Origin: Escherichia phage allfine
Strand: one strand, 5' to 3'
Sequence record: MN850633.1
DNA length: 64,000 bases
Position 1 is the stretch's first letter. Each line of letters opens with the position of its first letter. The notes beneath the pieces are model-generated. The model ran no database searches. It was not told the DNA's origin and was given only the letters and a program-made list of their open reading frames with translations. This document shows positions 11,708 to 63,772 of this stretch, piece by piece. The translations under genes were made by a program, and so were the position numbers.

Positions 11708-11708
11708 T

Positions 11709-12371: not shown

Positions 12372-12376
12372 TTTAT

Positions 12377-12464: not shown

Positions 12465-12476
12465 ATTTAAATTTTG

Positions 12477-12550
12477 CGGTTAGTCAGGGATTCGAACCCT
12501 GTGCCATTCGCTTAACAGGCGACCGCACATACCTTATGTGCTTCCTAACC
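12477..12550 (-). tRNA. tRNA-Asn (GUU)
   Basis: D-stem GCAC/GUGC, anticodon loop CUGUUAA, T-arm CAGGG-UUCGAAU-CCCUG; CCA not encoded. Confidence 0.75.
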
Positions 12551-12595
12551 TTAATACATTGCCAGACCGTGTTTTTCTTTTATCCGCAAAAAGTA

Positions 12596-12629
12596 GTTTG
12601 TTGCTGAATACGGTCTTCTGTAAATTTGG
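12596..12629. repeat. repeat motif copy 3 (TTGTTGCTGAATACGGTCTTCTGTAAATTTGG) with upstream CCAGACCG partner at about 12571
   Basis: Same core as 12123 and 12763 copies. Confidence 0.5.
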
Positions 12630-12703
12630 AGGCGGGTGCAGGAGTCGAACCTGCCGATACCATGCTAATGAGACATGTGAGACGCCCTTTCTCTATACCC
12701 GCA
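12627..12703 (-). tRNA. tRNA-Met or Ile2 (CAU)
   Basis: Anticodon stem CAUGU/GCAUG loop CUCAUUA, D-stem GAGA/UCUC, T-arm GCAGG-UUCGACU-CCUGC; position 1-72 mismatch in one register. Confidence 0.6.
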
Positions 12704-12762
12704 ATTCTTAATGACCAGACCAAATATCTTCTTTGTCCGATTTCGTGTCAGATGAGTAGATT

Positions 12763-12790
12763 AAGTTTGCTGTAATTGGTCTTCTGTCAA
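12763..12790. repeat. repeat motif copy 4 (TTGCTGTAATTGGTCTTCTGTCAAAA) with upstream CCAGACCAA partner at about 12714
   Basis: Same core as other copies; on minus strand reads TTGACAGAAGACC. Confidence 0.5.
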
Positions 12791-12793
12791 AAC

Positions 12794-12871
12794 TGGCGTT
12801 CCAGAAGGGATTTGAACCCTCAAATATCCACTTTGAAAGAGTGGTGACTTTACCATTTTGTCTACTGGAAC
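12794..12871 (-). tRNA. tRNA-Glu (UUC)
   Basis: Acceptor GUUCCAG/CUGGAAC, anticodon stem CCACU/AGUGG loop CUUUCAA, T-arm GAGGG-UUCAAAU-CCCUU, CCA. Confidence 0.8.
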
Positions 12872-12878
12872 ATTAATT

Positions 12879-12955
12879 TGGTCTCTGTTGGAGGACTTGA
12901 ACCTCCGGCCTTACCGCCCCAAACGGAACGCTCTACCAAGCTGAGCTAAACAGAG
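12879..12955 (-). tRNA. tRNA-Pro (UGG)
   Basis: Acceptor CUCUGUU/AACAGAG with C1-G72 typical of bacterial tRNA-Pro, D-stem GCUC/GAGC, anticodon loop UUUGGGG, T-arm GGAGG-UUCAAGU-CCUCC. Confidence 0.8.
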
Positions 12956-17963: not shown

Positions 17964-17973
17964 TATCTTCATA

Positions 17974-17997
17974 GGCTCCTTCGGGAGCCTTTTTTAT
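17974..17997 (+). terminator. rho-independent terminator
   Basis: GGCUCC-UUCG-GGAGCC hairpin followed by UUUUUU immediately after lysozyme stop. Confidence 0.8.
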
Positions 17998-30009: not shown

Positions 30010-30795
30010 TTAGTTCTTTGCGTCTAAGAAGGTTACTTCCGGTGAAGAGAAAACCGTCTCGATATCCTCATCATTTCTTGCATAGATGTAAGCATCTGCA
30101 TCACTGCCAAATGTTACTGCAATTCTGTGATTGCTCTTCGACAGGTGGGTAACTAGAGCGTTACTTAGAGACATCTTCTCAACCGGAGGGTTACTTTGAT
30201 GTATCTTACCTTTTCTTCGTCTGAAGAGGGTAACTGTATCATCTGTGAACATTACTACACCTGCAAAGTATTCTGGTTCACAGTAGTTATTCCAACCTGA
30301 GCGTAACTTGTGGTACATCTCTCCTTCGTAGACATACAGATAAACATCTACACTCTTCATCACCTGATTAATGATAACTGTGACGGCTTGAGGGTCTAGC
30401 CCACCGATACCTGCACCAATCATAGGTAGACCAACTTTCTTCAACTGATTGACTTCACAGTATCTGTTAAGCTGTTTCAAAGATGATTCTAAAGCACTGT
30501 ATCGGGCATCTTTACCAGTCTTAAGCTGAGTGTAAAGGTTAGCTATTCGACCTTGTTTTAAACGTGCTACAGAGAAATTACCCAGTAAATTTTCACAGGG
30601 TTTGTGTCCTATACCACCTGCATATAGATAAACTTCTGTATCGGTCTCATATGCTTTTGGGTAAAGTTTAGAAATCTTGTCAGCGATACCTGCACCCATT
30701 AAATTCATACAGTTGCAACCGTGACCGATGATGTCAAACTTACCTTTATCAAATGCGGCAAAGATATCACCATTGATTATTTTTACAATACCCAT
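30010..30795 (-). CDS. macro-domain protein (ADP-ribose binding/hydrolase family) with about 100-aa C-terminal extension (261 aa)
   Basis: Macro-domain signatures IINGDIF...DIIGHGCNCMNLMGAGIA and VGLPMIGAGIGGLDPQAV. Confidence 0.7.
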   Translation of the reverse strand: MGIVKIINGDIFAAFDKGKFDIIGHGCNCMNLMGAGIADKISKLYPKAYETDTEVYLYAGGIGHKPCENLLGNFSVARLKQGRIANLYTQLKTGKDARYSALESSLKQLNRYCEVNQLKKVGLPMIGAGIGGLDPQAVTVIINQVMKSVDVYLYVYEGEMYHKLRSGWNNYCEPEYFAGVVMFTDDTVTLFRRRKGKIHQSNPPVEKMSLSNALVTHLSKSNHRIAVTFGSDADAYIYARNDEDIETVFSSPEVTFLDAKN

Positions 30796-32315: not shown

Positions 32316-32336
32316 AAAAAGGCTCCCGAAGGAGCC
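32316..32336 (-). terminator. rho-independent terminator
   Basis: Minus strand GGCUCCUUCGGGAGCC hairpin plus UUUUU after stop at 32349. Confidence 0.75.
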
Positions 32337-32348
32337 TGTATCTTAACC

Positions 32349-35334: not shown

Positions 35335-37701
35335 TTAATCGTAAATTGTAGTCCCTTCTGGAACACACTTCACATCAAAGCCCAAGAACTTACTCACTTC
35401 GATGGGTGACACTTTATTCCAATCTAAATGAGAAAGCAAGAAGTTTTCTTGTTTCCTTTTTGAGAAGTAGTTTGTCACCTTAATAAACATACGGTCACCA
35501 GCTTTCTTAATTTTCTTGTAAAGCTTTGTATCATTATCAAGACACCTTTTCAAATCTTGCAACACACTAATAGTGTAAGTGTATGCAAATTGTGCAGCAA
35601 TGTATTGGATTTTACCGAACATTGCCTCAACAGCATCTTCATTACCTTCTAGGAAGATAGTTTTGTTTGTATCCCGTGAATAGCAATAACCATCAGAAAT
35701 CTTCCTGTTATTGAACGTAAAGTTTCTGGTAATAATCCAACAGCTTGTAAGGTCTAGGACACCACGCATACAGACGCGTGTCATATACCTGTTATGATTA
35801 ATCCAATGAACATCAGTTAAGCTGTCGTTCAAGAGCTTCTCATCTACTTCAATCCAGTCTTCTGGTATCTTTTTCCAATTTGCTTTTCGGAAAACATAGA
35901 CTGTCTTTCCAATGACATTGGCAACTGACTTAGCTACATCATCTGGAGATGAGCAAAAACATTCGCCATCAACTGTGTCACCTACTGCCTTAATATAAAG
36001 CTGAGGCTCTTCAATCGTGTCTAAGTCTTCTGACACCTCTGTGTATGAGGCTACACCTTCTGCTGGAACAGCTTTCCAGAGTTTTACAACACCTCTTACA
36101 GCTTCTTTACGCTGATAGTGATGTTCCTTATCAGACATCTTCACAATCTTTAACAAGCTTTTATCAAGTTTGTGTAGGTTGATTAAGTCATCTAGCTCTT
36201 TTTCAGTCGAGAATACAAACACAATACCATTATATCTGTGAAACAGACTTGACTCACTGGCGTAATCTCGACATGCACCACGCAGAATCTGATTGCGGCC
36301 TACAGTCTTCTCAGTGCCATTTTTATTACGACGGTCATTAATCACGAACAAAAACTGTTCAATTTGGCTTTTACGCATTGCACCAAAGATATTGAACATA
36401 CTTGCCTCTTGAGTGTAGGAAAGTGCTGTTGCACGAATCTTACTCTCTAAAGAGTTGAACTTGACATAAGCAACTGGATTATAAAGATAATCCACTTTAG
36501 GGATATTGTTCCCGTTCCTATCAACCTTGATATTACCTTTACCGTCACGTTCATAAATGACTGAGCCGTCTTCTGCGTAGATAATCCCACGACGGATGTT
36601 TAGTAATTCTACTTCCAGAGAATCAAGCTTAACGCCTCCCCACTCTAGCTTTGGACACACAACATTAAACATCTCTCGTGAGTTCAAACGTAACTCAGCA
36701 TAAGCCTGTGCAGCATCCATGAGTGTAGGTTGGCTGTTAACTTTCTTGATAACATCCTTTGTAATGGCTTCAGTTATCTTTTTAGTAGCCTCAATGATAA
36801 CATTTTTTGTCGTATCATTCATCTGCAATGCTTCACGAGAAGCTGCAATAGCAACTGAACCAATAGGCATGTAAATGTTTACAAGGTCTACGCTCCTACG
36901 GAAAAACTCTGGCAAGACTTTGAAGAAATCATCACCAAGTAATGCTTCCATATTAACTGGATAGGCAATATTACCCATCACCACATTAAACTCTGTCCTG
37001 TTACCACTAGAACGCCAGCTTTGCTTATGAATCATAGCGTCATAAACACCTTCTTCACGAGCAATGACATTCATGTCTGCTAACACGTCATCATATACAA
37101 TATTACTTTCTGGTTTTACAGCAAAGTATGAGTATACGTGACCAGCCTCTTCAAAGAACTTTGAAATACGGTGGTCAGCAACTGCCACACGTACAGCTAA
37201 ACCATTAGGTTCTTTTGTTGGGTTAGTGGTCAGCTTAGTTACTTGAGGGATACCATTCTCAAGGTAAACAGAGTACTTATTAACAACACCATCAACATAG
37301 CTAGATACTGTGAATGACTGAGCAATTGCAAATGGAGATTTTGAACCGATACCCATTGCACCAATGTAATCATTAGAGTCATTCTTCGTAGAAGCCCCGT
37401 AGTTTAGGTACAAACTCATAACTTTATCATGAGTCAATCCAGTTCCAAAATCACGGACTTCAAAGTAAGGCTCAAAACGAGTAGGTAAATGCACATGGAA
37501 CGGGATATTCTCTTTTCCAGCTTCTTTCTGAGCATCTACTGCGTTACATGACAGTTCACGAATCACTGCCCTTTCTTTAAAGGTATATACACCAGAACTC
37601 AAAAGGCTGAACATTTCAGGTGTCATTGTAATCTGTGCTTGAGATGTCTCCAAAGAAGTTGAACTCTTAATCACTTCTGCGTGGTCATTTACCATGCGCA
37701 T
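35335..37701 (-). CDS. rIIA: rIIA-like protein with N-terminal GHKL-type ATPase fold (788 aa)
   Basis: Bergerat-fold N box RELSCNAVDA and G1 box RDFGTGL near N-terminus; size and pairing with downstream gene as in T4 rIIA-rIIB. Confidence 0.55.
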   Translation of the reverse strand: MRMVNDHAEVIKSSTSLETSQAQITMTPEMFSLLSSGVYTFKERAVIRELSCNAVDAQKEAGKENIPFHVHLPTRFEPYFEVRDFGTGLTHDKVMSLYLNYGASTKNDSNDYIGAMGIGSKSPFAIAQSFTVSSYVDGVVNKYSVYLENGIPQVTKLTTNPTKEPNGLAVRVAVADHRISKFFEEAGHVYSYFAVKPESNIVYDDVLADMNVIAREEGVYDAMIHKQSWRSSGNRTEFNVVMGNIAYPVNMEALLGDDFFKVLPEFFRRSVDLVNIYMPIGSVAIAASREALQMNDTTKNVIIEATKKITEAITKDVIKKVNSQPTLMDAAQAYAELRLNSREMFNVVCPKLEWGGVKLDSLEVELLNIRRGIIYAEDGSVIYERDGKGNIKVDRNGNNIPKVDYLYNPVAYVKFNSLESKIRATALSYTQEASMFNIFGAMRKSQIEQFLFVINDRRNKNGTEKTVGRNQILRGACRDYASESSLFHRYNGIVFVFSTEKELDDLINLHKLDKSLLKIVKMSDKEHHYQRKEAVRGVVKLWKAVPAEGVASYTEVSEDLDTIEEPQLYIKAVGDTVDGECFCSSPDDVAKSVANVIGKTVYVFRKANWKKIPEDWIEVDEKLLNDSLTDVHWINHNRYMTRVCMRGVLDLTSCWIITRNFTFNNRKISDGYCYSRDTNKTIFLEGNEDAVEAMFGKIQYIAAQFAYTYTISVLQDLKRCLDNDTKLYKKIKKAGDRMFIKVTNYFSKRKQENFLLSHLDWNKVSPIEVSKFLGFDVKCVPEGTTIYD

Positions 37702-37729
37702 AATACTTTCCTCTTAGTTTACTGTTAAA

Positions 37730-37906
37730 TTACTTATTAAACATTTTACCAGAACCACCACACATAGGGCAACAACCTGCTCTTGTATACCCTTCCCCAT
37801 TGCAGTAATCACACTTCTTGTACTCTGCATAGTACTTGCAAAGAAGGTAAACAAAAACTGCTACACTACTAAGTGACAGTAAAATTTCTATCCAATATGC
37901 TTGCAT
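37730..37906 (-). CDS. small membrane-anchored protein with two DnaJ-type CxxCxGxG zinc-finger repeats (58 aa); absent from ORF track
   Basis: Hand translation MQAYWIEILLSLSSVAVFVYLLCKYYAEYKKCDYCNGEGYTRAGCCPMCGGSGKMFNK; start overlaps upstream stop. Confidence 0.4.
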   Translation of the reverse strand: MQAYWIEILLSLSSVAVFVYLLCKYYAEYKKCDYCNGEGYTRAGCCPMCGGSGKMFNK

Positions 37907-38223
37907 GACTCACCTCTCATATTTTTGTAAAGGATAAAGCTTCTGTCATGGACGATACTTGTAGATACTGCAAAGTTACTTTCAAGCATCTGTTTGTTTG
38001 GATTGTAGAAGCTTTCTTTAAACTCGTCAAGCGCAAATTGGTGATGTTGTGGAAGACCTTTTACACATATTTTTATTGTGATTGCTGCTGCAATCTTGCC
38101 AGTCAGTTCTTCTTTAGCTGCTACTAGAATTTTGCTAAGGAACTTTTTACCATCTTCAGGTTTCTTAATGTTCTCCCAACGTTCTTCTAAGACAATGTTG
38201 ATATTCATCTCTTTGATTTTCAT
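37888..38223 (-). CDS. hypothetical protein (111 aa)
   Basis: ORF after terminator, GGAGAAAACTATG RBS. Confidence 0.5.
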   Translation of the reverse strand: MKIKEMNINIVLEERWENIKKPEDGKKFLSKILVAAKEELTGKIAAAITIKICVKGLPQHHQFALDEFKESFYNPNKQMLESNFAVSTSIVHDRSFILYKNMRGESCKHIG

Positions 38224-38240
38224 AGTTTTCTCCAGAAATT

Positions 38241-38261
38241 AAAAAGGCTCCCGTAGGAGCC
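38241..38261 (-). terminator. rho-independent terminator
   Basis: Minus strand GGCUCCUACGGGAGCC hairpin plus UUUUU after NAMPT-family gene stop. Confidence 0.75.
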
Positions 38262-38276
38262 TCTTATCATATACTT

Positions 38277-40058
38277 TTAAAGCTGCTTGTCAATATTATT
38301 TCGAATATCACCAAGAGTTGTGTAACCGAACTGTTCAGAGTCACTAAAAATTAAGCGTAGAGCACAAGCTGGGTGGTCAAGTGCATCTGCAAAGCTCTGG
38401 AATCCATAGCCATCTACAGCTTTCAGCTTCTCACCATCCCACATAGGTGCTACACCACCAAAGGCAGATTTCTTAACACCACTATCTGTTTTAGGGTCTT
38501 TTGCAAGCATAATCTCTTTACCACCAATGCTTGCAAGAGTTGCTTTGACAGCAAATGCAAAGGTGTCACGAGTCATGTACTGGTAAGTGTAAGAACCTAC
38601 GCCAAACACTACGTTAGAGCTTGCAAAACCCATTTCATACAGACGCTTCAGGATTTCGTTTGCACGTTCCAGCGTGATAGAGTCACCATAGATAAGTCCG
38701 ATATGCTCATCCAGTACCTTAAACCCTTTAGAGTTAATAGTTCCCCCAAAGATGTTGTACAGTGTCTTAATAGCTCCATCAATCTCAGCTACAGGACGTG
38801 TTACAACGTTTGCAGAACCAACCATATAAGCATTTTTCAACAGCACTGTATCAGCAACTTCAAAGTCTTCTCTGTCAACAACCATTTCGTAGCCTTCTGA
38901 CAGTAGCCATCCAGCAATACCATAATTGATGTTTTCAAGCTTCATGTTCAGGACAGAGTTCAGCATTGTGTCACTTGCCTCTAGCTTGCTTAGGTGCTCG
39001 TAATAAGCCTTCTTAGCACACTCTAAGTGGATTGCTTTATAGCCTGTGACAATATGTACAGGGTCTCCAGAGTCAGGACGAATTACCAGTTTGCCATCAC
39101 GTTCCATAATTTCTTTACGGAGTGCTGGTAAGATTTCTGACACAGTTCTCCAGAAGTTATAAGTATCTGAAACAATACTTACAATACCAGTTGGGTAAGT
39201 TTCTGTTAAGAAACGACGGAAGGTTTGTAACTCACCTTTAAAGCGTCTTTCTTCTTCAATCAGTTCATTACCACCTTCCCAAGCAATGTTTGCACACATT
39301 ACAGAGTGTTCAGTGGCTGGTACAGAACTACCAATATCAGAAATTGGGTAAGACTGTCCATAGATGCGTTTAGCCGTGTATACAGCAGGGAAACTATCAG
39401 TTCCTTTAAAGCTGGTTAAGTGACCTACAGCATTAAATGCGTCATCGGTAAAGCCGGACATACCACGCATAGCAAAGTCATGGCACTGATAAGGTAAATG
39501 TAAGTCGTTATCGCAAGTAAGGTCAGCCCACTTCTTACAGATACGTTTGTAGTGCAATGCGATAGTTGCAATGGTGCAAGCCTTCCAAATCTCAGCAGAG
39601 AAAGCATCTTCCAGATAACCTGCTACCCAATGGAAACCTGAAACAGTGTTCTGGAAGACAATCATTGGGACACGCATCGGGACAACTGTGCCTTCTTCTA
39701 CAGCGTATACTTCAACTGGCAGATAACCTAAGTCGTGAAGTGCTTCCCAATGCTCTCGACCGATAGCATCTTTACCCAGAACACCATTCATGACTTCTAA
39801 GATTTCGTCAATTGCTTCTTTTTTATCACGTTCAAAGAAAGTGGCGTTCCAGTGGTCTATCAAGTAATCTTTAACAAAACGTTGAATACCAAAAGCCACT
39901 ACACCATCAATTGCTAAAGGGCTGTTAAACCATTTGTCGCTACGTGGTGTCAGGTTGAACATCAAGTACTCTGTTGCACTAGGATACTGGTAAACATGAC
40001 CAGATTTGTAAGCATCTGCGTTTAAACCTGCTGGTACTGCATAAAGCGATTTAGTCAT
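38277..40058 (-). CDS. nicotinamide phosphoribosyltransferase family protein (NAMPT/NadV or Namat-like, 593 aa)
   Basis: N-terminal DAYKSGHVYQYP matches NAMPT DSYKVTHYKQYP; C-terminal GDSITLE...FGVGSYTYQ matches NAMPT core. Confidence 0.85.
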   Translation of the reverse strand: MTKSLYAVPAGLNADAYKSGHVYQYPSATEYLMFNLTPRSDKWFNSPLAIDGVVAFGIQRFVKDYLIDHWNATFFERDKKEAIDEILEVMNGVLGKDAIGREHWEALHDLGYLPVEVYAVEEGTVVPMRVPMIVFQNTVSGFHWVAGYLEDAFSAEIWKACTIATIALHYKRICKKWADLTCDNDLHLPYQCHDFAMRGMSGFTDDAFNAVGHLTSFKGTDSFPAVYTAKRIYGQSYPISDIGSSVPATEHSVMCANIAWEGGNELIEEERRFKGELQTFRRFLTETYPTGIVSIVSDTYNFWRTVSEILPALRKEIMERDGKLVIRPDSGDPVHIVTGYKAIHLECAKKAYYEHLSKLEASDTMLNSVLNMKLENINYGIAGWLLSEGYEMVVDREDFEVADTVLLKNAYMVGSANVVTRPVAEIDGAIKTLYNIFGGTINSKGFKVLDEHIGLIYGDSITLERANEILKRLYEMGFASSNVVFGVGSYTYQYMTRDTFAFAVKATLASIGGKEIMLAKDPKTDSGVKKSAFGGVAPMWDGEKLKAVDGYGFQSFADALDHPACALRLIFSDSEQFGYTTLGDIRNNIDKQL

Positions 40059-40104
40059 CTTTTAATCTCTCTCAAAATGGGGCTTAAAAGCCCCCTATAA
40101 AGTT

Positions 40105-41004
40105 TTAATCAAGGTTTGCTACAGTAACTTGACCATAATGTGTTAAGCCACGGTCTTTAGCTTCCCCTAAAGAGTTTGTAGTGTAAATGTGGTCAATACC
40201 ATTGTCAAGAAGGTTTTCAACACCTTTAGAGAAGATACCATGTGTTACATAGAGTTCCACACGTTTTGCACCTGCTTCACGAAGATGTTTAGCTGCTTCT
40301 ATGAATGTTCGACCACCATCACAGATATCGTCGAGAATCATAACAGTTTTATCGGTCAAATCAACATCATCAAGGATTCGCATACCAGTAATTTCACCAG
40401 TCTTAAGGTTACGTACTTTAGACATTGTGATGTATGGTTTATCCACCTCTTTAGCAGTCTCTGCAATCTTCTTAGAAGCACCTGCATCTGGGGCTACTAA
40501 GTAATCAACCAGAGGGTCATTCGCATAGTGAACTGCGACTTCCTTTTGAGGAATGCTTTGGAAGCAGTTAAATAGGTTGTCTGGTACATAACTGTGAGGG
40601 TCAACTGCACAGACTGCACCAAACCCCATTGCATTAACCTGTTTAGCAAAAACCTTCAAAGCTGCTGCATCACCTTTAAACATGTGACGGTCATATCGTG
40701 CATTTGGTAAGTAGTAAAAAATGACAGTCTTTAAGGCATATTCATGAGGAACTAAATCATCAATTGCTTCTTTAGCAAGTGCCACAGCAAACAATGTGTC
40801 TTTATCATAACCTTTTACAATCATAATCACATTGTTGATGGATGATGCTGCGTGAGCAGTAAAGTCAACAAGCTCTTGTGAAAAGTGTCCACCAATCTCA
40901 CCAGAAGGGAACTGGATGAGGTTAAACTCTTCTTCATGAGACCCTTTTGTCGGTGAATGAATTATAACACGGATAGATGTTTTCATAGTTTTACTCTCAA
41001 TCAA
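40105..41004 (-). CDS. ribose-phosphate pyrophosphokinase (Prs) family protein, possible ADP-ribose pyrophosphokinase (299 aa)
   Basis: Type I PRTase/Prs motif MILDDICDGGRTF; size and N-terminal domain like Prs; adjacent to NAMPT-family gene. Confidence 0.7.
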   Translation of the reverse strand: MIESKTMKTSIRVIIHSPTKGSHEEEFNLIQFPSGEIGGHFSQELVDFTAHAASSINNVIMIVKGYDKDTLFAVALAKEAIDDLVPHEYALKTVIFYYLPNARYDRHMFKGDAAALKVFAKQVNAMGFGAVCAVDPHSYVPDNLFNCFQSIPQKEVAVHYANDPLVDYLVAPDAGASKKIAETAKEVDKPYITMSKVRNLKTGEITGMRILDDVDLTDKTVMILDDICDGGRTFIEAAKHLREAGAKRVELYVTHGIFSKGVENLLDNGIDHIYTTNSLGEAKDRGLTHYGQVTVANLD

Positions 41005-41275
41005 AAGTCACGAATGTCACAGCCATAGCTGTTTTGCATTTTTGTGGATTCACAATGTGATAGATTACTGAACAGTTACCTGTGCTATCTGGTACTGGTT
41101 TTGTCCAAGTGCGTTCAACATTTGGTTCACCTAGTTCTTTGTAGAATCCGTTTGTGTGACGGTCAATCATCTCAAGAGCTAATGGGTCTGGTATATGGCC
41201 ACGAAGCATATACATCTCACAACCATTTCCAGCATCACTTATTAGGTCTTTTATTTCCCAATCTGCTTTAGCCAT
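40997..41275 (-). CDS. hypothetical protein (92 aa)
   Basis: ORF overlapping neighbours by 8 nt each side. Confidence 0.45.
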   Translation of the reverse strand: MAKADWEIKDLISDAGNGCEMYMLRGHIPDPLALEMIDRHTNGFYKELGEPNVERTWTKPVPDSTGNCSVIYHIVNPQKCKTAMAVTFVTFD

Positions 41276-41783
41276 TGTAAGTTGCCCTATAAACTGTCTC
41301 GAACTTCAACAGGAGAGATATTGCCAAATCTGTATAGCTGTTGTCAAGCACATCTGGCATATTGTTTTTGATATATTTCTCTTGCTCTTCATAGGTCATC
41401 TTAGAGGTGCTTAAAAGTCTATCTCCTTGCTTCTGATTATCAGCTTTAGTCTGGATAAACCAGTTTGCACAGTGATGTTCACCACCTTTTGTAACAGGCT
41501 TGTGGTGGCCTAATGTGAAGGACTGGTTACCTGTGTATCTGCAAAGCTTATTGAGTACTGTAATGGTGTTCTTCACAACAAAACATTCATACAGGTTATC
41601 TATGGTGTAATGTGGGTAATAGTGGAATAGTGCTCTTTCACGAGTACTCTCACGATTCCAGAGAATCATGTGATTGGAGTTGGAAGGGTCATATTGGTGG
41701 GAGTCAATGAACTCTTGACGTTCCTCAAAGCTGAGCCTTAACACTGACATTGCAGCCGAACGTTTCAGGTTTGACAGGTACAT
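41268..41783 (-). CDS. hypothetical protein with HNH-like motif (171 aa)
   Basis: GHHKPVTKGGEHHCANW resembles HNH nuclease core. Confidence 0.4.
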   Translation of the reverse strand: MYLSNLKRSAAMSVLRLSFEERQEFIDSHQYDPSNSNHMILWNRESTRERALFHYYPHYTIDNLYECFVVKNTITVLNKLCRYTGNQSFTLGHHKPVTKGGEHHCANWFIQTKADNQKQGDRLLSTSKMTYEEQEKYIKNNMPDVLDNSYTDLAISLLLKFETVYRATYNG

Positions 41784-41834
41784 ATTATCTCCAAAATAAA
41801 AAGGGAACCTTTACAGTTCCCTAATCATAGACTC

Positions 41835-42146
41835 TTACTGAACTAATTTCAATACTTTGAAGAAACCTTCTTCACCAATTGCATCATAGACCTTTTCAGT
41901 TGGCTTGATAAGGTTGTTCAAGCAGATTATTTTCTTACGTTTCTTATCATAAGAAAGTTTAAGCTGCTTCAGCTCTTTATCATCTTCAGGGTGCTCATTG
42001 TACATCTTTACAGCCTCTTTGAAGCTAATGTAACCGCCGCCAAGAGTAAGGAAACCTGTGCCACAATAATGTGAATTGTGCTTATCAGCCATAAACTGAC
42101 ACAGAATAGAAATCTGAATTTTACGGGTGTTATAAATCTTTTCCAT
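41835..42146 (-). CDS. hypothetical protein (103 aa)
   Basis: ORF. Confidence 0.45.
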   Translation of the reverse strand: MEKIYNTRKIQISILCQFMADKHNSHYCGTGFLTLGGGYISFKEAVKMYNEHPEDDKELKQLKLSYDKKRKKIICLNNLIKPTEKVYDAIGEEGFFKVLKLVQ

Positions 42147-42157
42147 TTTGGTTATCC

Positions 42158-42415
42158 TTACTTGTTGCGTTTACGGTTACGAGCTTTCTTAGCTGCTCGT
42201 TTAATAGCTGCTGCACCAGACGGACGGTGGGCTTGCTTCTTACCACCTTTACCACGTCCAACATGAATGTAAGGCTGCTGTTCAATCTGGCTTGCAAGAA
42301 CCTGTGCAACTGCTGAAGCATCTACACCGACCTGCTTACCCGTCATAGAAACAATTGCTGCTGCTTTTGCCAGTGCAGCTAAGAAACCAGCTTTCATATT
42401 ACCTAAAATTCCCAT
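42158..42415 (-). CDS. hypothetical protein with basic C-terminus (85 aa)
   Basis: ORF; C-terminal KRAAKKARNRKRNK. Confidence 0.45.
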   Translation of the reverse strand: MGILGNMKAGFLAALAKAAAIVSMTGKQVGVDASAVAQVLASQIEQQPYIHVGRGKGGKKQAHRPSGAAAIKRAAKKARNRKRNK

Positions 42416-42430
42416 TTTTAGCCTCTCTCA

Positions 42431-42712
42431 TTAAAGTTTAATACAGAACTGGTCTAGTTCTTCTTTTTCAATACCAACTTGAACATCTCCGTATGCTACG
42501 TCAGTGAAAAATGTCTGTCCATCATTAAATGCGCTTTCTGAATCAACGTGGAAAGTAACACGTTTAACAATCTCTGCTAGAGCTACTAACCCACTTTTCC
42601 CAAACTTCTCATGGGTCTTTACCATCCACTCATCAAGTGAGTTAATATTATAAGTCCACTTACCGGAGTAGCTACTCTGCTCTCCACTGACAGTCACCTT
42701 GCCACCCATATT
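42431..42712 (-). CDS. hypothetical protein (about 93 aa)
   Basis: Track ORF 42431-42790 trimmed to internal Met to limit overlap with nrdG. Confidence 0.4.
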   Translation of the reverse strand, partial: NMGGKVTVSGEQSSYSGKWTYNINSLDEWMVKTHEKFGKSGLVALAEIVKRVTFHVDSESAFNDGQTFFTDVAYGDVQVGIEKEELDQFCIKL

Positions 42713-44185: not shown

Positions 44186-45133
44186 TTACATAGAGACTCT
44201 ATCACGAATCTCAGCGATTTTTGCATCATTCATTCGAGACTGACCTTTAATTTTTGTGAATGACAAGTACCCGCACACCCTGTTAATCACAGAAATATCA
44301 TGTGAATGACAAACCTCACATTCTTCAACATCAGCCTTTGGTCTGTCACCACAATGTTCACAGATTGCTAAGTCAAAGTTAAGTCCCTGATAGAAACCTT
44401 TCAACATCCCTCTTGTAATACAACTCTTAAGTGCTGATAAGTTTTCTGGATTAGCTACCCTTACATACTGGATTCTGCCGCCTCTACAGATATGGAAGAA
44501 GGGTTCTTCTAAGTCCTGCTTCTCAAATGGTGTAATATCTGCTGCAACATTCATATGGAAACTATTTGTAAAGTATTCTTTATCAGAAACACCTTTGATA
44601 ACGCCAAACATATCTCTGAACTGTTTTAACTGAGTTCCACAAAGTGATTCTGCTGGAGTGCCATATACCGCATACAAGAAGCCATCTTCGTTCTTAAACT
44701 CTTCAGTTTTCATGTTAATGTATGCCAGAACATCGTATGTAAAACTACAGCTTCCAACTTCATGAAGCCGTTTACCTTCAGCAAGAACAGATAGCTCATC
44801 AAGCGCAGTAACCCCAAAAGAAGCTGTGAAGGACTTCACAATATCCCAACCAACCTTGTCAGTAGGCTTCTTAGTTCCTTTGTACAGACCACCTTGTGTA
44901 AATGCAAGAGGGTTAGAACTTGCTGGCATATTGGCAATCATTTCATAGCGTTTCTTGTGGAAACTACGAATCATCTCTAGGTACTTATCAAGCTCTTTCC
45001 AGAAATCTAAACCATTCTCTTTAGAATACTGGTAAATCATTGGTAAGTTCAAAGATACAGCACCAATGTTAGCACGACCAACATAGAACTCTTCCCCATT
45101 ATCGTTAAGATATGGTGATAAGAACGCTCTACA
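44186..45133 (-). CDS. nrdD: anaerobic ribonucleoside-triphosphate reductase, exon 2 (C-terminal part)
   Basis: Begins CRAFLSPYL directly after predicted 3-prime splice site; C-terminal CEHCG...CEVC zinc site and glycyl-radical motif RVCGYL. Confidence 0.8.
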   Translation of the reverse strand, partial: CRAFLSPYLNDNGEEFYVGRANIGAVSLNLPMIYQYSKENGLDFWKELDKYLEMIRSFHKKRYEMIANMPASSNPLAFTQGGLYKGTKKPTDKVGWDIVKSFTASFGVTALDELSVLAEGKRLHEVGSCSFTYDVLAYINMKTEEFKNEDGFLYAVYGTPAESLCGTQLKQFRDMFGVIKGVSDKEYFTNSFHMNVAADITPFEKQDLEEPFFHICRGGRIQYVRVANPENLSALKSCITRGMLKGFYQGLNFDLAICEHCGDRPKADVEECEVCHSHDISVINRVCGYLSFTKIKGQSRMNDAKIAEIRDRVSM

Positions 45134-45875
45134 CTTGTTGTTCAGGTAAGTTCGCTAAGCTTACCCCGCTTTATTCAAGCTGCTTACTGTCGCCAGTAAG
45201 TCCAGACTATATCTTCTACTTATTTCTAAGTAGCGTACCATTTCGAGTCGCTTGACCCTACACCGCTACATTCATCACGGTTAGTCGTTCGGCATTTAGA
45301 TGTATTCAAACTCATATTCGAAGTTATTATGCTCTTTTACACCCTTCAATATTGAAGAGATGGTCTTGCGATTGTGTCCAAGTATATTGGATAACTCTCG
45401 TATTGACTTAGTAACAATAACTTCCTTTGTCACTTTGTGTGTGGCTTTCACGGCATATGAACGCTTGTGGAACTTGTAACATCCGTTCTCATAACCCTCT
45501 TTAGCATTCTCAGAATGAGTACCCCATTCTAAGTTAGATGCGTGGTTATTTAGTTTGTTATCGTCCTTATGTTTTACAATTGGAAGATTATTCGGGTTAG
45601 GTACATATTTCTCAGCAACTAACCTGTGGACATACATGTCACGATTCTTCTTACCGTAAAACCTCACTTTCATATACCCAGTGTTGGATTTCCACTGCGT
45701 AAGCTCTACACCATTTTCCCTAAAGACTTTTCCATCTTCAGTGACGTGATAGTTTGGCATGTAAGACTCCTATGTTGTATAGTTTCTTACATCGTACATC
45801 ATTTAGCACAGGATTGTCTACATCTGTAGAGTTTCCCTGTTTAGGCACGTTTTAGATGAGCTATAGAGCTTGTTA
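45134..45875 (-). mobile_element. putative group I intron in nrdD carrying HNH homing endonuclease ORF
   Basis: Exon 1 ends ...ISPMG then stop; exon 2 resumes CRAFLS in frame, reconstituting conserved PMGCR motif; upstream exon ends in U, intron ends in G; P7-like pairing CGACUAA / UAUAGUC. Confidence 0.65.
45296..45760 (-). CDS. HNH homing endonuclease (intron-encoded, 154 aa)
   Basis: HNH core HRLVAEKYVPNPNNLPIVKHKDDNKLNNHASNLEWGTHSEN; own AGGAG RBS. Confidence 0.8.
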   Translation of the reverse strand: MPNYHVTEDGKVFRENGVELTQWKSNTGYMKVRFYGKKNRDMYVHRLVAEKYVPNPNNLPIVKHKDDNKLNNHASNLEWGTHSENAKEGYENGCYKFHKRSYAVKATHKVTKEVIVTKSIRELSNILGHNRKTISSILKGVKEHNNFEYEFEYI

Positions 45876-47072
45876 ACCCATCGGTGAAATTACCTTGCCA
45901 GAACGCTCAAAAGCTTCTGCTACAGCACCATGACCAGATACACTTAAGAAATCTGGATACATTGCTTTAGAGCAGCACTCAATAGCTTTACTGTACAGGT
46001 GGCCTTGACAGATATTCTCATTATGTCTCTTCTGGTCATAAATATAAACCAGTTTAGGGAATACAACAGGCTTCTTGCTCTTACCTTGTCCATTCATACG
46101 AACATCTAGGAGAGTACTTGCAATTATATATTGCAGTCGGTTATCTTCATTGGACATATCTGAGTCAAGTAACCCGAATGTCAAAGTTGTGAATGCAAAA
46201 TCCCCACGACTACAAGGTACAGTATTTAGTTTCATTTCAAGTGACTGGAAACCTTGAGTTAGCTCAATCTGTAGCTGCTCCATGACATAATTGTGGTAAT
46301 GCTCTTTAGGAATACCATAAGATGCTGCTTTCTCAGCATGATAGCGTAGAGACTTCTTAGCATACGGTACAAGTACCTTATCAATCTCTGCTAAAGTAAA
46401 GCCACCAAATTGCTGTGCAGTTGCTGAAAGAACTACATCGCCAATAACCTGTAATGCTGACAGTACAGACTTCGGTTCACAATATTCAATGCCAGACATT
46501 TCAAAGCCACCTTTCAGCACTTTACCAATGTCAAACAGGCAACAGTTGATACCACCAAAAATTAGGTCTCTTAAATCATGGATATAGATAAACCCTTTTT
46601 CAATGGCTTCAAGTTCCTCTGGTGTTAAATGGTACTGCTTAAAGATTTCTTTAGTCAGGTAACCACGAATAATTGAACCTTTTGTAGAAATTAAACTGCT
46701 GTCAAAGTTAGCATTCTCCCTGTCACCTAAGAAGAGTGTATCTTTGGTCTTCTGGTAAAGTTCATCCCAATTTTGAGCAACCTCTTTACGGTAATTTCTA
46801 TATGTTGAGTAAGACTCATAAATCTCGTGATTGACTTCTGCCAAAGCACCCTCAACAATACTGTGAATATCATTTACAGAAATTAGCAAATTATTCTGTT
46901 TAGTAGATTTTACCAGAATCCTCATAAATGCTGACTCAAGAGCTTGGGTAACATCTGGTGGGAGTTCTTTATATCCAACCCTATTAGCTGACTTTGTGAC
47001 TGCTGCTAAAACTTTTTTGATATCAGGTTCTTCGAGTGAGCCATTCTTTTTAATAATCTGTACTTTGTTCAT
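45876..47072 (-). CDS. nrdD: anaerobic ribonucleoside-triphosphate reductase, exon 1 (N-terminal part)
   Basis: N-terminal ATP-cone-like start MNKVQIIKKNGSLEEPDIKKV; ends SPMG at predicted 5-prime splice site. Confidence 0.8.
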
Positions 47073-47090: not shown

Positions 47091-47111
47091 TAAAAAGGTC
47101 TCCGAAGAGAC
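47091..47111 (-). terminator. rho-independent terminator
   Basis: Minus strand GGUCUCUUCGGAGACC hairpin plus UUUUU. Confidence 0.7.
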
Positions 47112-47120
47112 CCTTTCATT

Positions 47121-51564: not shown

Positions 51565-51889
51565 GGTATTTCTCCAAGTTTCTTTTTAGATACAACCAAC
51601 CATCGTCAGTTCTTTCTACACCCATAAAGAGGGGAGCCATCACGACTTTACCGAAAGTATTTCTGTGTTGGCAGATTTCAAAAGAATATTCTTTCTCAAT
51701 ATCAATCCCGTATTTGTACAGGACTGCTTTTAAAACTTGTTCATTGTCCAGAAGTGTATCTGGAGTCTCACCATACTTTTCAAGTAACGGGTCATTCATA
51801 AACACCGTCATAGAAATATTGTAGTTTGAGAAGTGGCTCTTCTGAGCCACACCCTCTTTATTAATGTTCTGTGAATCCATTATAACCAA
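51557..51889 (-). CDS. hypothetical protein (110 aa)
   Basis: ORF. Confidence 0.5.
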   Translation of the reverse strand: MVIMDSQNINKEGVAQKSHFSNYNISMTVFMNDPLLEKYGETPDTLLDNEQVLKAVLYKYGIDIEKEYSFEICQHRNTFGKVVMAPLFMGVERTDDGWLYLKRNLEKYRV

Positions 51890-52616
51890 CCCCTTTTAAC
51901 CAGCACTTCAGGTTATTAGCATCATAATTCAGTTTCGGGTATGAGGTTACATGGAACTGCTCACCATCATAGTAGACAATATCTGCAATCCATAGTCCAT
52001 TCTCTTTACAGAAGTCTTTATCTGCTTTAGAGGTAATTGGATTAACTTCTACAAAACCATCTACACCCAAATCCTTTAAGCTACCTACAAGACCTTTGCA
52101 GATAACGCATGTCTCAGATACTACCACAAAAAGTTCTTGGCTTTCAAGTTCTACAATGTATTCACCAAGCTGTACTTTAGGGAGATTCGATTGCTTCATA
52201 ATCTTCCCATCTGCTGCACGAACAATTGCATACCACTCTTTACCATCAACTACTGACATTCTGATAATACACTCTTGACCAGTACGCTTTTCAATGTCTG
52301 CAAGACGCTTTAAAGCTTCTTCATAGTCATCTGTGTACTTCAGGTCATTATTATGGCAAACAGCTTTCATAGCACCGTTATGGTCATGTTGTGACAGGTA
52401 AATCAAGCCGTCAAGAACATATTGTAAATCTGCCTGAGCATCCAGTGTCTCAATGGGGTCTTTCTCTTCAATTGCTTTTACAAGCTCTTTTGCTTCTTCA
52501 AGCATACACAGAGATTGAGATTTTAAAGATTCCCAATACTCATCACTGTAAGGTTGCTTTTGAGTGTTTCCACAACGAAGGTTCCAGTTTTTTACTGATT
52601 CTCTTGAGTTAAACAT
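51861..52616 (-). CDS. hypothetical protein (251 aa)
   Basis: ORF; acidic helical N-terminal region, CxxC (CVIC) in C-terminal half. Confidence 0.5.
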   Translation of the reverse strand: MFNSRESVKNWNLRCGNTQKQPYSDEYWESLKSQSLCMLEEAKELVKAIEEKDPIETLDAQADLQYVLDGLIYLSQHDHNGAMKAVCHNNDLKYTDDYEEALKRLADIEKRTGQECIIRMSVVDGKEWYAIVRAADGKIMKQSNLPKVQLGEYIVELESQELFVVVSETCVICKGLVGSLKDLGVDGFVEVNPITSKADKDFCKENGLWIADIVYYDGEQFHVTSYPKLNYDANNLKCWLKGVGYNGFTEH

Positions 52617-60267: not shown

Positions 60268-62410
60268 ATGGAAAACGTAGATTTTAAAAACTTACATTTG
60301 GTTGGTGATACAGAGACTGATGGTTTACTCCTTGAGTTCACTAAAGTTCACGTAATGGCTTTTGCAGACTATAAATCTGACGATGAAGAGCCTCCTGTAT
60401 GGGTCTTTACAGATGAGCCTATCCTCGGTCACAAGTACACTAAGTACATCAAGGGTGGTTTACGTGAAGGTGTTGAATTTGTGTTAAAGGCAAAACGTCT
60501 TTGCATCCATAATGGTCTCGGTTATGACTGGTGGGTTTTCAATCACATTGCACCTGATTTATGGAACTTTGATAATCCAAAATGTAAGCCGTGGAGTAAT
60601 TTCTTTCAGGATTCTCTTATCCAGTCTCGTGTTCAGTGGATGGATAGACCAACTCCAAAGGGTTATAAAGGTGCTCATGGCTTGGCTGCATGGGGTGCTC
60701 GTGTTGGTGTCCGTAAACCAGAGATTGAGCATTGGGGTGTGTGGAATGCAGAAATCTTCACTCGTGTTGTAGAAGATATCCGTATTAACGCCAAAACTAA
60801 ACGGGCACTTGATAACGAGTATCTCAAGCTTAAGAAGTGTGGCATAGACACTTATGAAACCTACATGCGAGCTAAAGAAACATCTTTCTGGATGAGTCAA
60901 CAAGCTATCAATGGTTGGAAAGCTGATAAAGAGCTTATGGAGTTCCATGTAAAGGAACTTGACAAGTTGACTAATGAGCTTGCTTCAGAGGTTGAACCAC
61001 ATCTACCTCCAACTATTAAGACCAAAGGTAAAGTCACTGGAGAAGAGTTTGCAAAAGCTTGGAATGAGTATGTTGAAGCATTTGGTCATGCAGATGGACT
61101 GAAAAGAATTACCAAGTACCCTAAGACAAAGTATCGTCAGCAGGTACGTAATGGTGAGATGCAGACATACGAAATCAAACCATTTGGTAAGCCAACTACA
61201 AAGATTTTTAACATTGAAAAGAGAAATTGCTATACACCAACCAACTCTGTAACTGGTGAAGAGTACAAGGAAGGCTTTGTAGCAATGAAGGATGCTCGTG
61301 CAATTTGCAATGAGTTGAATGCAAAGATTGGTAAGAAATGCAAAGACTGGAAGCCAGTAAAAACAGTCAAAACTGTGAAGTACTATAACAGCCACGTTGT
61401 TAACCACTTTGAACTTGAGTCAAGTCGCTACACAGGTTTGATTGATGCACCATATACACCAATTGAGTTTGAAGTTTCTCGTATGACTCAGGTAGCAGTT
61501 GTTAAAGACTACTTGAAATCAGTTGGTTGGATTCCAGATGACTGGAACTACAAGAAAGACTCAGACGGTCGCCCTGTAAAAGTTTGTCGTTTCAAAGACA
61601 ATAAAAAGATGATTACAAAACATCCTAAGTGGCAGGAAATGGTTGAGCGGTGTGGTTTGAGTTATGTTGAACATGAAGGTGTGCAGTACATTGAGCATAA
61701 CTGGTCCGTGAAGAAATACACAGACTTGCTTGAGCCTTGCTTAATCCGTACTTCACCAAAACTTACTGAATCATCTTATGATACGATTGAAGGTGAACTT
61801 GGACAGAAGATTGCTAAGTACTATACTTTGATGCACAGACGCAGAACTATTGAGAACTCAAAGGATGATGAAAAAGGTTGGTTGAACCAGATTCGTCCTG
61901 ATGGTCGCCTTAGTGCTGGTGCGATGGTGTTCGGTACTTCAACTGGACGTATGACACAATATGGTATTGTAAACGTACCGTCTGGTGCTGCTGTCTATGG
62001 AGCACCTATGAGGGAGGTGTGGATTTGTGAAGAGGGGACTAACATTGTTTCTGTTGACCAGAACTCAGCTCAGCTTGTTTTACTGTGTAACTTTATGGGT
62101 GATAAAGATTTCACCAAAGCGGTAACTGAAGGTAAAGAGTTTGTAGAGTTCACTAAACAGGATGATGGACGATACTACTGCAAGCATCTTGATAAGTACC
62201 TAAATCCAGAGGCTGATAAATATTGTCGTTACGATGCTGATAACGATTTGTATGAAGTCTATACAGGTACTGATGCGCATACACTTAACAGTATCTATTT
62301 TGCATTGAACAAAGAAGAAGATATTATCCGTTGTAGAGAGACACAGGATGAGGAACTTCTTCACGAGATAACTAAAGGCCGTAAGAAGGCTAAGAATGGT
62401 ATCTATGCGT
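60268..62410 (+). CDS. DNA polymerase, family A (Pol I/T7-like), exon 1
   Basis: Exo I motif DTETDG at N-terminus, motif A VDQNSAQL, O-helix start RKKAKNGIYA truncated at predicted splice site. Confidence 0.85.
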
Positions 62411-63215
62411 CAGTGGCGCATGTAAAACGTTGTGAATTGCTGGAAGCCTAAGTCTGTAAAGATATGGTAATCAGCAGCGAAGTCTCTGTTAGGACTCCTA
62501 TAGTAGAAATGGGAGAGAGACAATGGCAGGTTATAAAGAAAGAGTTTGTTCCAGATGTGGCGAAGAGTTTAAGCCATATCAGTACAATCAAAAACGTTGT
62601 AGAAACTGCGTTCTTGAAGTAGACAGAAGAGCAGCAAGTCGTGTCATAGAAAAGGTATGTCCAAGCTGCAATAACCAATTCACACCTAGAACAGCAAGAC
62701 AGACATATTGCAGTTCTACATGTGGAGAAAAGGGAAGGGTAAAGAACTACTACTTAAGGACTTACGGCCTAGAAAGAGAAGAGGTTGAAGAGTTGTTAAG
62801 TAAATGTGGCCATAAGTGCCAAATCTGTGGCGGTGAAGGTTTCATCATGAATGGCTCAAGACATAAAGCTAAACTTGTTGTTGACCATGACCACAAAACA
62901 GGTAAGGTGAGAGGGATGTTGTGCCACAACTGTAACAGAGGTCTTGGCTTGTTCTCAGACAGTGTAGATAATATGCAGAGAGCAATTGCATACCTTAGTA
63001 AACAATAGTATTTTAGAGTTCCTAACAGAGAAACGTTCAGAGACTATCGAAAAGCATACTTAATGTGTGAACTGAGTAGAGTAGGATGGTAAGCTAATGA
63101 CCATTCCCAAGTGCAACGGTAGTATTACTACTACGTGATATAGTCCGACACTCCGTAGAAATGCGGAGAAGTTCATAAGAGAACTGGTACACCTTGCGAG
63201 TGTATTGACCAGATG
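62411..63215 (+). mobile_element. putative group I intron in DNA polymerase gene carrying endonuclease VII-type HNH ORF
   Basis: Splicing 62410 to 63216 gives in-frame ...KNGIYALLFGAGDEK..., matching T7 O-helix IYGFLYGAGDEK; exon ends in U, intron ends in G; P7-like pairing AGACUAU / AUAUAGUCC. Confidence 0.65.
62523..63008 (+). CDS. HNH endonuclease, endonuclease VII-type (intron-encoded, 161 aa)
   Basis: Multiple CxxC zinc knuckles plus LVVDHDHKTGKVRGMLCHNCNRGLG His-Me finger motif; own RBS. Confidence 0.8.
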   Translation: MAGYKERVCSRCGEEFKPYQYNQKRCRNCVLEVDRRAASRVIEKVCPSCNNQFTPRTARQTYCSSTCGEKGRVKNYYLRTYGLEREEVEELLSKCGHKCQICGGEGFIMNGSRHKAKLVVDHDHKTGKVRGMLCHNCNRGLGLFSDSVDNMQRAIAYLSKQ

Positions 63216-63772
63216 TATTGTTCGGTGCAGGTGATGAGAAGTTTGCCAAAACCATTAAGGCAGCTTCTACAGAGGAAGGTGCATTGACTAAGCAGACCTA
63301 CTATATGCGTCTACCAAAGATTAAGAAGCTACTTGACAGGTTAGAGGAAGACTTCAAAGCAACTAAGAAGGCACTTGAAGAGGTTTTTGGAAAAACTTCT
63401 GCAATTGCCAAAGGTGGTTATATCAAAGTCGCTGGAGCGTGGTTATGGTGTAAATCTCCACATAAGTTATTGAATTTCACACTCATGGGTAGTGAGGCGC
63501 AGGTTCAGAATGAAGCAATCAACCTTGCTTGCAGAAGAATGATTGATGAAGGTTTGATGAAGTTGAACGGTCGTAAACCAGCTATAGGTGCTCGTTTATT
63601 GTGCTCCTATCACGACGAGACGAGTTGGGAATGCCCAGAAAGTATGACGGCAGAAGTGAAAGCAGTTACTGACTGGTATTATGGACAAGCTTCTAAGAAC
63701 TTAGGTCTTAAGAAAGAAACACTTGTTACAGGTACTGGTAAGGTTGGTAAATCGTGGTATGAGGTACACTAA
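63216..63772 (+). CDS. DNA polymerase, family A, exon 2 (C-terminal part)
   Basis: Begins (L)LFGAGDEK completing O-helix; contains motif C LCSYHDE. Confidence 0.8.

Follow-up and report, generated by a model that had tools for sequence, protein, structure and literature searches.

A NARP1 operon is very probably present in a Felixounavirus

Two neighbouring genes of the Felixounavirus Escherichia phage allfine, adps and namat, very probably constitute an operon for NAD+ reconstitution pathway 1 (NARP1). The DNA analysed, called hereafter the window, is a stretch of 64,000 nucleotides (sequence record MN850633.1), and its phage is a FelixO1-like E. coli phage sharing 95.8% DNA identity with phage EC106. 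The system itself is already known and was first established experimentally in a member of the same genus, Bas63 (JohannRWettstein). There, NARP1 was found as genes 79-80 (Adps QXV81770.1 and Namat QXV81771.1), and its deletion was studied (Osterman et al., bioRxiv 10.1101/2024.02.11.579819). The same work tabulates the EC106 and wV8 proteins as "Adps" and "Adps-associated Namat" (the wV8 and Bas63 Adps in its Table S1).

The chemistry and the anti-defence effect expected of the window operon follow the literature on its orthologues. First, NAD+ would be split into ADP-ribose (ADPR) and nicotinamide by a NADase-type defence of the host, such as SIR2-HerA/Nezha, DSR, type I Thoeris or SEFIR. 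Adps, a Prs-like pyrophosphokinase, would then transfer pyrophosphate from ATP onto ADPR, giving ADPR-pyrophosphate (ADPR-PP), and Namat, with its adenine-binding "selectivity clamp", would swap the pyrophosphate for nicotinamide. This last step would yield NAD+ directly, with neither an NMN intermediate nor an NMN adenylyltransferase (NMNAT).

The two adjacent ORFs from which a sequence-only reading had started proved, by an ORF check, to be both real and both on the minus strand. The namat gene lies directly downstream of adps, with a gap of 46 nt from the end of one to the start of the other. A 3.3-kb region spanning the two is kept in 259 phage records, and phages unrelated to this one also have the pair, among them Vibrio phage VF16 and, according to the published papers, SPbetaL1. 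Such recurrence indicates that the pairing is not due to chance.

The NAMPT-like protein resembles Namat rather than Nampt

The namat gene (38277..40058, minus strand) encodes the 593-aa protein that had been read as a NAMPT-family member, and the family was borne out by matches to Pfam NAPRTase PF04095 (E 7e-35), to NAMPT_N PF18127 and to phrog_448, "nicotinamide phosphoribosyl transferase" (E 3e-202). Its assignment as a nicotinamide ADP-ribose transferase rests on identity to Bas63 gp80, on the ranking of PDB matches and on the clamp motifs. Identity to gp80 extends over 583 of the 593 residues (98%), and none of the ten substitutions falls at a ligand-contact residue. The top PDB matches were 9w5w and 9w5x (E 1e-128), which were matched to SPbetaL1 Namat (PMC12774641) via residue numbering; Nampts scored 1e-52 and 1e-41, the latter value for human NAMPT. 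The catalytic core is kept: D15, Y17, F195, R198, D221, R327, D329, G458, D459 and the PATEH251 motif correspond to contact residues of SPbetaL1, and all NAD+-contact residues map in the window protein.

The specificity determinants of Namat were solved structurally in 2026. Its signature motif is GSXoXoXoTRD, X being aromatic, and true Nampt enzymes are without it. The window protein has, in this SCH motif, G488-S-Y490-T-Y-Q-Y494-M-T-R-D498 (GSYTYQYMTRD), whereas the same site reads GGALLQKVDRD in Xanthomonas Nampt (7yqo) and GAQTYQRNTRD in PDB 9ke8. In the second clamp element, the SCL loop, the stacking residue is either an Arg at position 3 or, when position 3 is Lys or Tyr, the fourth residue. 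In the window loop, S40-D-K42-W43, Lys occupies position 3 and is followed by Trp, which is also the case in Bas63, the published example of the Lys type; stacking by K42-W43 would follow the AlphaFold3 model of the paper. These features support a Namat rather than a Nampt type of enzyme. Preference for ADPR-PP over PRPP and direct NAD+ formation have been demonstrated for SPbetaL1 Namat only, and Namat enzymes keep a residual PRPP to NMN activity in vitro.

The Prs-like protein groups with phage Adps

The second gene, adps, encodes a Prs-like protein whose assignment as an ADP-ribose pyrophosphate synthetase draws on Pfam, PHROG and NCBIfam matches and on identity to Bas63 and wV8. The Prs family given by the sequence-only reading stood, while the length of 299 aa did not: it corresponds to the mechanical ORF, 40105..41004, which opens at a TTG. 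The product is most likely 293 aa long, from an ATG at 40986 (40105..40986, minus strand), because this ATG has a GAGAG Shine-Dalgarno sequence 7 nt upstream, follows the stop codon of the ORF before it by 10 nt and is where the Bas63 and wV8 proteins also begin (MKT...).

The ORF matches Pribosyltran PF00156 and Pribosyl_synth PF14572 in Pfam, which gave no match for the Prs N-terminal domain, and phrog_619, "ribose-phosphate pyrophosphokinase" (E 9e-97). All NCBIfam Prs equivalog cut-offs were missed, the best score being 103 bits against 296, and the broad TIGR01251 subfamily model was just passed (118.8 versus 113 bits). Identity was 78% to Bas63 gp79 and 95% to wV8 Adps, with an almost identical catalytic, C-terminal half; it was 29-36% to other listed Adps proteins and 25% to E. 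coli Prs. The catalytic lysine of the family (K197 in B. subtilis Prs, K162 in SPbetaL1 Adps) is represented by K190 (293-aa numbering), in an invariant column shared with that SPbetaL1 lysine and with K194 of E. coli Prs; R97, D99, R100, H131 and D219-D220 are also in invariant columns. For 97% of Adps-clade genes, a Namat is found within ten genes (Osterman et al., bioRxiv 10.1101/2024.02.11.579819), and in the window namat is the next gene downstream. By its sequence, the protein thus appears to be a member of the phage Adps clade and not a cellular Prs. The comparison of NAMPT with Namat and of Prs with Adps, which the earlier reading had put forward as a check, therefore favoured Namat and Adps on motifs, PDB ranking and equivalog cut-offs.

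Reconstitution of NAD+ versus other roles of the pair

No cytidylyl- or adenylyltransferase family match was found among the 40 window ORFs scanned, so that, at the sensitivity of Pfam, the earlier observation of no recognisable NMNAT in the window stands. None is annotated among the 161 features of the complete Bas63 genome either, and it is via Bas63 only that the some 24 kb of phage genome beyond the window were judged. The phage-encoded NMN adenylyltransferase by which NARP2 is recognised was therefore found neither among these window ORFs nor in the Bas63 annotation.

The behaviour of Bas63 gives the functional side. Without genes 79-80, its plaque number on SIR2-HerA cells drops about 20-fold, and NAD+ depletion is deeper (bioRxiv 10.1101/2024.02.11.579819). 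The wild type is rescued from SIR2-HerA without any need for host pncC or nadR, as seen in a double-deletion host. ADPR-PP was detected in infected cells only when wild-type Bas63 met the defence system, and infection in its absence produced no excess of NAD+. Pyrophosphorylation of ADPR in vitro has been reported for SPbetaL1 Adps; the published in-vitro enzymology covers SPbetaL1, DyoEdafos and Paenibacillus homologues, not Felixounavirus proteins.

These data bear on a classical salvage, in which the Prs-like protein makes PRPP, the NAMPT-like protein makes NMN, and host NadR, or PncC with NadD, completes NAD+ in a NARP2-like, host-assisted manner. The family-level annotations, which read Prs and NAMPT, and the narrow pass of the TIGR01251 cut-off would fit such a route. 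It is nevertheless very unlikely: a phage with orthologous genes beats SIR2-HerA in the pncC nadR host and makes ADPR-PP, the Namat-specific clamp motif stands where a Nampt-type sequence would be expected, no phage NMNAT was found, and the Prs-like protein misses every Prs equivalog cut-off. Bas63 orthology, the clamp motif and the lack of a detected NMNAT thus uphold the module for NAD+ reconstitution that had been proposed, in preference to salvage through PRPP and NMN.

The operon also adjoins nrdA/B/D/G and other genes of nucleotide metabolism, a neighbourhood that would suit a supply of nucleotide precursors, the Prs-like protein raising PRPP for phage nucleotide synthesis and the NAMPT-like protein being an unrelated metabolic auxiliary. 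However, a role in PRPP supply leaves the near-constant vicinity of Namat to Adps-clade genes unexplained, and the phenotype reported for the deletion is seen specifically with an NAD+-depleting defence, with NAD+ levels unraised when no defence is present. Precursor supply can hardly be credited on this evidence, and NAD+ reconstitution by NARP1 remains the reading adopted here.

Extent of the transcription unit

The strong terminator that had been noted past the pair was confirmed. It is an intrinsic terminator on the minus strand (38242..38265) with a 10-bp stem, a UACG loop and a U-run (z -2.98), located 11 nt past the namat stop codon; its sequence, read from 38265 to 38242, is AAGAGGCUCC-UACG-GGAGCCUUUU followed by UAAUUU, and is identical in Bas63. 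An Rfam scan of 37600..42600 returned only sub-threshold noise, at this terminator. A second minus-strand hairpin, GGGGCU-UUUA-AGCCCC followed by AUUUUG (40079..40094, z -2.15), occupies the interval between adps and namat. Its stem is kept in Bas63, with a different loop; weak attenuation or a contribution to RNA stability would be possible functions.

On the upstream side, two small ORFs precede adps on the same strand: one of 171 aa (41268..41783; phrog_3500, with a weak HNH-like match; orthologue bas63_0077) and one of 92 aa (40997..41275; phrog_4726; orthologue bas63_0078). Upstream of both, a promoter-like site on the minus strand (41852..41824, TTGAAA-17-TATGAT), which is a consensus match only, is abutted by a hairpin with a U-run (41822..41802). 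The interval 41802..41852 is likely to hold the upstream boundary and the start of the unit, so that the two small ORFs are probably co-transcribed with adps and namat. The proposal of a single transcription unit is plausible, but the unit would likely comprise four genes instead of the pair, its upstream limit being drawn from consensus matches to a promoter and a hairpin. The 171-aa and 92-aa ORFs were considered as accessory NARP1 parts and rejected, as they are dissimilar to the genes upstream of VF16 NARP1 and belong to no Pfam family.

A macro-domain gene distant from the operon

A gene for a macro-domain "putative phosphatase" (30010..30795; orthologue bas63_0095) is located 7.5 kb from the operon. 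Its product is homologous both to T4 Tk.4/AdfM, which is anti-DarTG2, and to Adpp, the ADPR-1''-phosphate phosphatase associated with NARP1. Vibrio phages Gary and VF16 have NARP1-AP systems, which comprise Adps, the macro-domain phosphatase Adpp and Namat (bioRxiv 10.64898/2026.01.28.702374). The window has homologous Adps (38%) and Namat (39%), and its macro protein shares phrog_335 with Adpp. In contrast, the macro gene stands outside the operon, and its product is only 27% identical to Adpp and has about 100 additional C-terminal residues, in which a Pfam search (E up to 10) revealed no credible domain. NARP1-AP is recognised by a macro Adpp gene within the operon or within two genes of it; no Macro match occurs among the operon neighbours, and the sole macro gene is the distant one at 30010..30795.

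The macro protein might feed Adps, by dephosphorylating ADPR-1''-phosphate or by recycling side products of the ADPR-cyclic-phosphate kind, in an unlinked NARP1-AP-like pathway, but we consider this rather doubtful. If true, Felixounaviruses would gain a NARP1-AP-like resistance to aRES-type defences. The supplementary files of the NARP1-AP study (bioRxiv 10.64898/2026.01.28.702374), including Table S1, contain no Escherichia phages, and an unlinked macro gene would have been missed by that survey because it was confined to a distance of two genes from NARP1. An AdfM-type, anti-DarTG2 DNA de-ADP-ribosylase, or a protein with both roles, is equally or more likely.

Significance and comparison with known systems

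As a discovery the operon carries little weight, since NARP1 was described in 2024 from the same genus and the closest relatives of the phage are already catalogued as carriers. It matters for annotation: the names "nicotinamide phosphoribosyltransferase" and "ribose-phosphate pyrophosphokinase" borne by these genes in related phages are functionally misleading and should be Namat and Adps. For a therapeutic or typing phage with this operon, resistance to SIR2-, TIR- and SEFIR-type NAD+-depleting defences is to be expected.

Among known systems, NARP2 of Vibrio phage KVP40 (Nampt with a bifunctional Nmnat) resembles the window operon in having a NAMPT-family enzyme and in countering NAD+ depletion. 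It requires PRPP and Nmnat, whereas the window combines an Adps partner with a Namat-type clamp and no Nmnat was found there.

The pair of the Bacillus phage SPbetaL1 (Adps WIT26982.1) has been characterised biochemically and structurally (PMC12774641). The window proteins keep its core catalytic residues, the aromatic SCH motif and the catalytic lysine of Adps, although identity is only 49% for Namat and 36% for Adps. The window Namat also exceeds its SPbetaL1 counterpart by about 100 aa, most of which is an insertion of some 77 aa (residues 340-427), in which no credible domain was recognised by Pfam (E up to 10). Its clamp loop has K42-W43 where SPbetaL1 has R40.

The Bas63 locus is the closest. 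It differs in that the window Adps is another allele, with 78% protein identity, and DNA identity is 64-72% in a mosaic patch that takes in the first (5') third of adps and the second (3') half of the ORF before it; Bas63 has, in addition, a 114-aa gene, gp81 (phrog_20372), directly past the terminator, which the window is without. Otherwise the two loci agree in genus, in position between nrdG and rIIA, in gene order and in a Namat of 593 aa.

Identification of the gene pair

Two adjacent ORFs were listed on the minus strand, one of 593 aa at 38277..40058 (-), the other at 40105..41004 (-), 299 aa long when read mechanically from a TTG. The 593-aa product matched Pfam NAPRTase (E 7e-35) and NAMPT_N, phrog_448 (E 3e-202) and NCBIfam PRK09198, and the smaller product Pfam Pribosyltran and Pribosyl_synth and phrog_619 (E 9e-97), in agreement with the neighbouring NAMPT-family and Prs-like genes described in the sequence-only reading. 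The Prs-like ORF announced there is present, but its length of 299 aa had to be corrected: because the ATG at 40986 is preceded, at a distance of 7 nt, by a GAGAG Shine-Dalgarno sequence, comes 10 nt past the stop of the ORF before it and is the annotated start of the orthologues, the protein is most likely 293 aa long. It passed the broad TIGR01251 Prs subfamily model (118.8 bits for a cut-off of 113) and fell below all NCBIfam Prs equivalog cut-offs (e.g. 103 versus 296 bits).

The pair is very probably the NARP1 operon of a Felixounavirus, NARP1 being the NAD+ reconstitution pathway formed by Adps (ADP-ribose pyrophosphate synthetase) and Namat (nicotinamide ADP-ribose transferase). This pathway first came to light in Escherichia phage JohannRWettstein (Bas63), another member of the genus, where it was described under the name "genes 79-80" (Osterman et al., bioRxiv 10.1101/2024.02.11.579819). 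According to that study, Bas63 lacking both genes plated about 20-fold less well on SIR2-HerA cells, with a deeper NAD+ depletion, and rescue was still seen in a host without pncC and nadR, so that it bypasses NMN. ADP-ribose pyrophosphate (ADPR-PP) was seen only when the defence system met the wild-type phage. Purified SPbetaL1 Adps made ADPR-PP from ADP-ribose and ATP, and purified SPbetaL1 Namat made NAD+ from ADPR-PP and nicotinamide.

Around the pair, Bas63 (MZ501086) is collinear with the window: nrdD, nrdG, small ORFs, the Prs-like and NAMPT-like genes, small ORFs, rIIA and rIIB. Namat is identical to Bas63 gp80 at 583 of 593 positions (98%), whereas Adps shares only 229 of 293 residues (78%) with gp79, compared with 278 of 293 (95%) for the wV8 protein. 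At the DNA level, identity to Bas63 is 64-72% at about 41240-40640, versus 95-99% over namat. This patch, 40640..41240 (-), covers the 3' half of a 92-aa ORF and the first ~115 adps codons, and its flanks are 95-99% identical. The divergence is ordinary phage mosaicism, the window allele being that of wV8 and EC106, whose proteins are tabulated as Adps with adjacent Namat and "Adps-associated" Namat (bioRxiv 10.1101/2024.02.11.579819 supplement). The 3.3-kb region matched 259 phage records, nearly all Felixounavirus-type phages of E. coli, Salmonella or Shigella, with Escherichia phage EC106 as the best match (95.8% identity).

Specificity determinants

A 2026 structural study separates Namat from Nampt by a "selectivity clamp", composed of a helix motif GSXoXoXoTRD, whose aromatic X residues stack on the ADPR-PP adenine, and of a variable loop adding one further stacking residue (PMC12774641). 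The helix motif of the window protein reads G488-S-Y-T-Y-Q-Y-M-T-R-D498, to be compared with GSFTYQYNTRD in SPbetaL1 Namat and GGALLQKVDRD in the true Nampt of Xanthomonas (7yqo). Its loop, S40-D-K42-W43, is of the type with Lys at position 3, in which the next residue would do the stacking, exemplified by Bas63 in the same study. All NAD+-contact residues listed for SPbetaL1 Namat are identical or conservatively replaced, and none of the ten differences from gp80 falls on them. The PDB ranking by sequence also placed the protein on the Namat side, with 9w5w/9w5x, whose residue numbering agrees with the SPbetaL1 Namat of PMC12774641, at E 1e-128, bacterial Nampt at 1e-52 and human Nampt at 1e-41. 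Relative to the crystallised SPbetaL1 enzyme, it has a ~77-aa insertion (residues 340-427), common to Bas63 and partly present in VF16, in which Pfam recognised no domain, and a smaller one at 258-278. In Adps, K190 occupies an invariant alignment column and is equivalent to SPbetaL1 K162, whose mutation inactivates the enzyme and which corresponds to B. subtilis Prs K197; the ARxDR, DPHS and DDICDGG motifs are conserved alongside.

The absence of a recognisable NMNAT, noted from the sequence, was borne out by a Pfam scan of 40 window ORFs, essentially all plausible genes of at least 108 aa without obvious function, which gave no nucleotidyltransferase match. Nor is there an NMNAT among the 161 annotated features of Bas63, which stood in for the ~24 kb of the genome beyond the window. 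The family names would naturally suggest classical salvage through PRPP and NMN, and some PRPP activity is retained by Namat in vitro (PMC12774641), but this route is very unlikely in view of the pncC nadR result and the detection of ADPR-PP in Bas63, the clamp motif, the failed Prs equivalog models and the lack of an NMNAT. That the Prs-like enzyme serves solely to supply PRPP for nucleotides is more improbable still, since this would leave unexplained the strict linkage to Namat, found in 97% of the Adps clade (bioRxiv 10.1101/2024.02.11.579819). The NAD+ reconstitution first proposed for the pair is thus supported by Bas63 orthology, the clamp, the missing NMNAT and the Prs model scores.

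Organisation of the transcription unit

The unit probably begins with a promoter-like site, TTGAAA-17-TATGAT at 41852..41824 (-), a consensus match only, adjoined by a hairpin with a U-run (41822..41802, -). A 171-aa ORF (phrog_3500), the 92-aa ORF (phrog_4726), adps, an intergenic hairpin, namat and a terminator follow, all on the minus strand. The strong terminator said to close the unit was confirmed: it lies 11 nt past the namat stop (38265..38242, -) and consists of a 10-bp stem capped by a UACG loop and trailed by a U-run. The GC-rich hairpin in the 46-nt adps-namat gap (GGGGCU-UUUA-AGCCCC then AUUUUG, 40094..40079, -) is conserved, with stem retained and loop different in Bas63, and may serve as a weak attenuator or affect RNA stability. 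The 171-aa and 92-aa ORFs were considered as NARP1 components and dropped, because they proved dissimilar to the genes that precede NARP1 in Vibrio phage VF16. Directly past the terminator, Bas63 and several relatives carry a 114-aa gene, gp81 (phrog_20372; Bas63 L004:6509-6853), which the window lacks through a clean 350-bp indel at ~38230, between the terminator and ORF 37888..38223.

Cassettes in which a sigma-70-like promoter (consensus matches only) ends 1-5 nt ahead of a terminator hairpin recur, at 17973..17990 (+), 32337..32320 (-), 38262..38245 (-), 41822..41802 (-) and 47112..47097 (-); three share the stem AGGCUCC/GGAGCCU. Transcripts begun there would start within the hairpin and so escape termination. 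Elsewhere, 24 tRNA genes are clustered at 8045..12955 (-), as is typical of FelixO1-like phages, and two genes are broken up by endonuclease-like ORFs, nrdD (44186..47072, -) by an HNH homing endonuclease (45296..45760) and the family-A DNA polymerase gene (60268..63772, +) by one like Endonuclease VII (62523..63008). A 251-aa protein (51861..52616, -) has a MazG/PRA-PH-like pyrophosphohydrolase domain (PF01503, E 8e-6).

A distant macro-domain protein

Defences of the aRES type convert NAD+ to ADPR-1''-phosphate, unusable by NARP1, and some phages carry in the operon a macro-domain phosphatase, Adpp, forming NARP1-AP; that survey extended to within two genes of NARP1, and its supplementary files contain no Escherichia phage (bioRxiv 10.64898/2026.01.28.702374). 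On the same strand as the pair and 7.5 kb downstream, the window encodes a 261-aa macro-domain protein (30010..30795, -; PF01661, E 1e-7; phrog_335 "phosphatase", E 8e-113) with a C-terminal extension of ~100 aa. Its best PDB match was TARG1/OARD1, and Poa1p matched more weakly. It is conserved across Felixounaviruses, the Bas63 orthologue being bas63_0095, "putative phosphatase".

The protein is 35% identical (E 3e-24) to T4 Tk.4, named "AdfM", a macrodomain anti-DarTG2 factor (bioRxiv 10.1101/2025.11.20.689424), and 27% identical (E 2e-13) to the Adpp of Vibrio phage Gary, the ADPR-1''-phosphate phosphatase of NARP1-AP; between Tk.4 and Adpp the identity is likewise 35%. The Adpp-like protein of VF16 belongs to phrog_335 as well, and these similarities with the common PHROG make the family assignment firm. 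The substrate could be ADPR-1''-phosphate, ADP-ribosylated DNA or both, and the protein could act as an unlinked NARP1 partner, an anti-DarT factor or both. If the region holds anything new, it would be here alone, a modest possibility; the Adps-Namat pair itself is a system described before, in this very genus and to the level of its residues.
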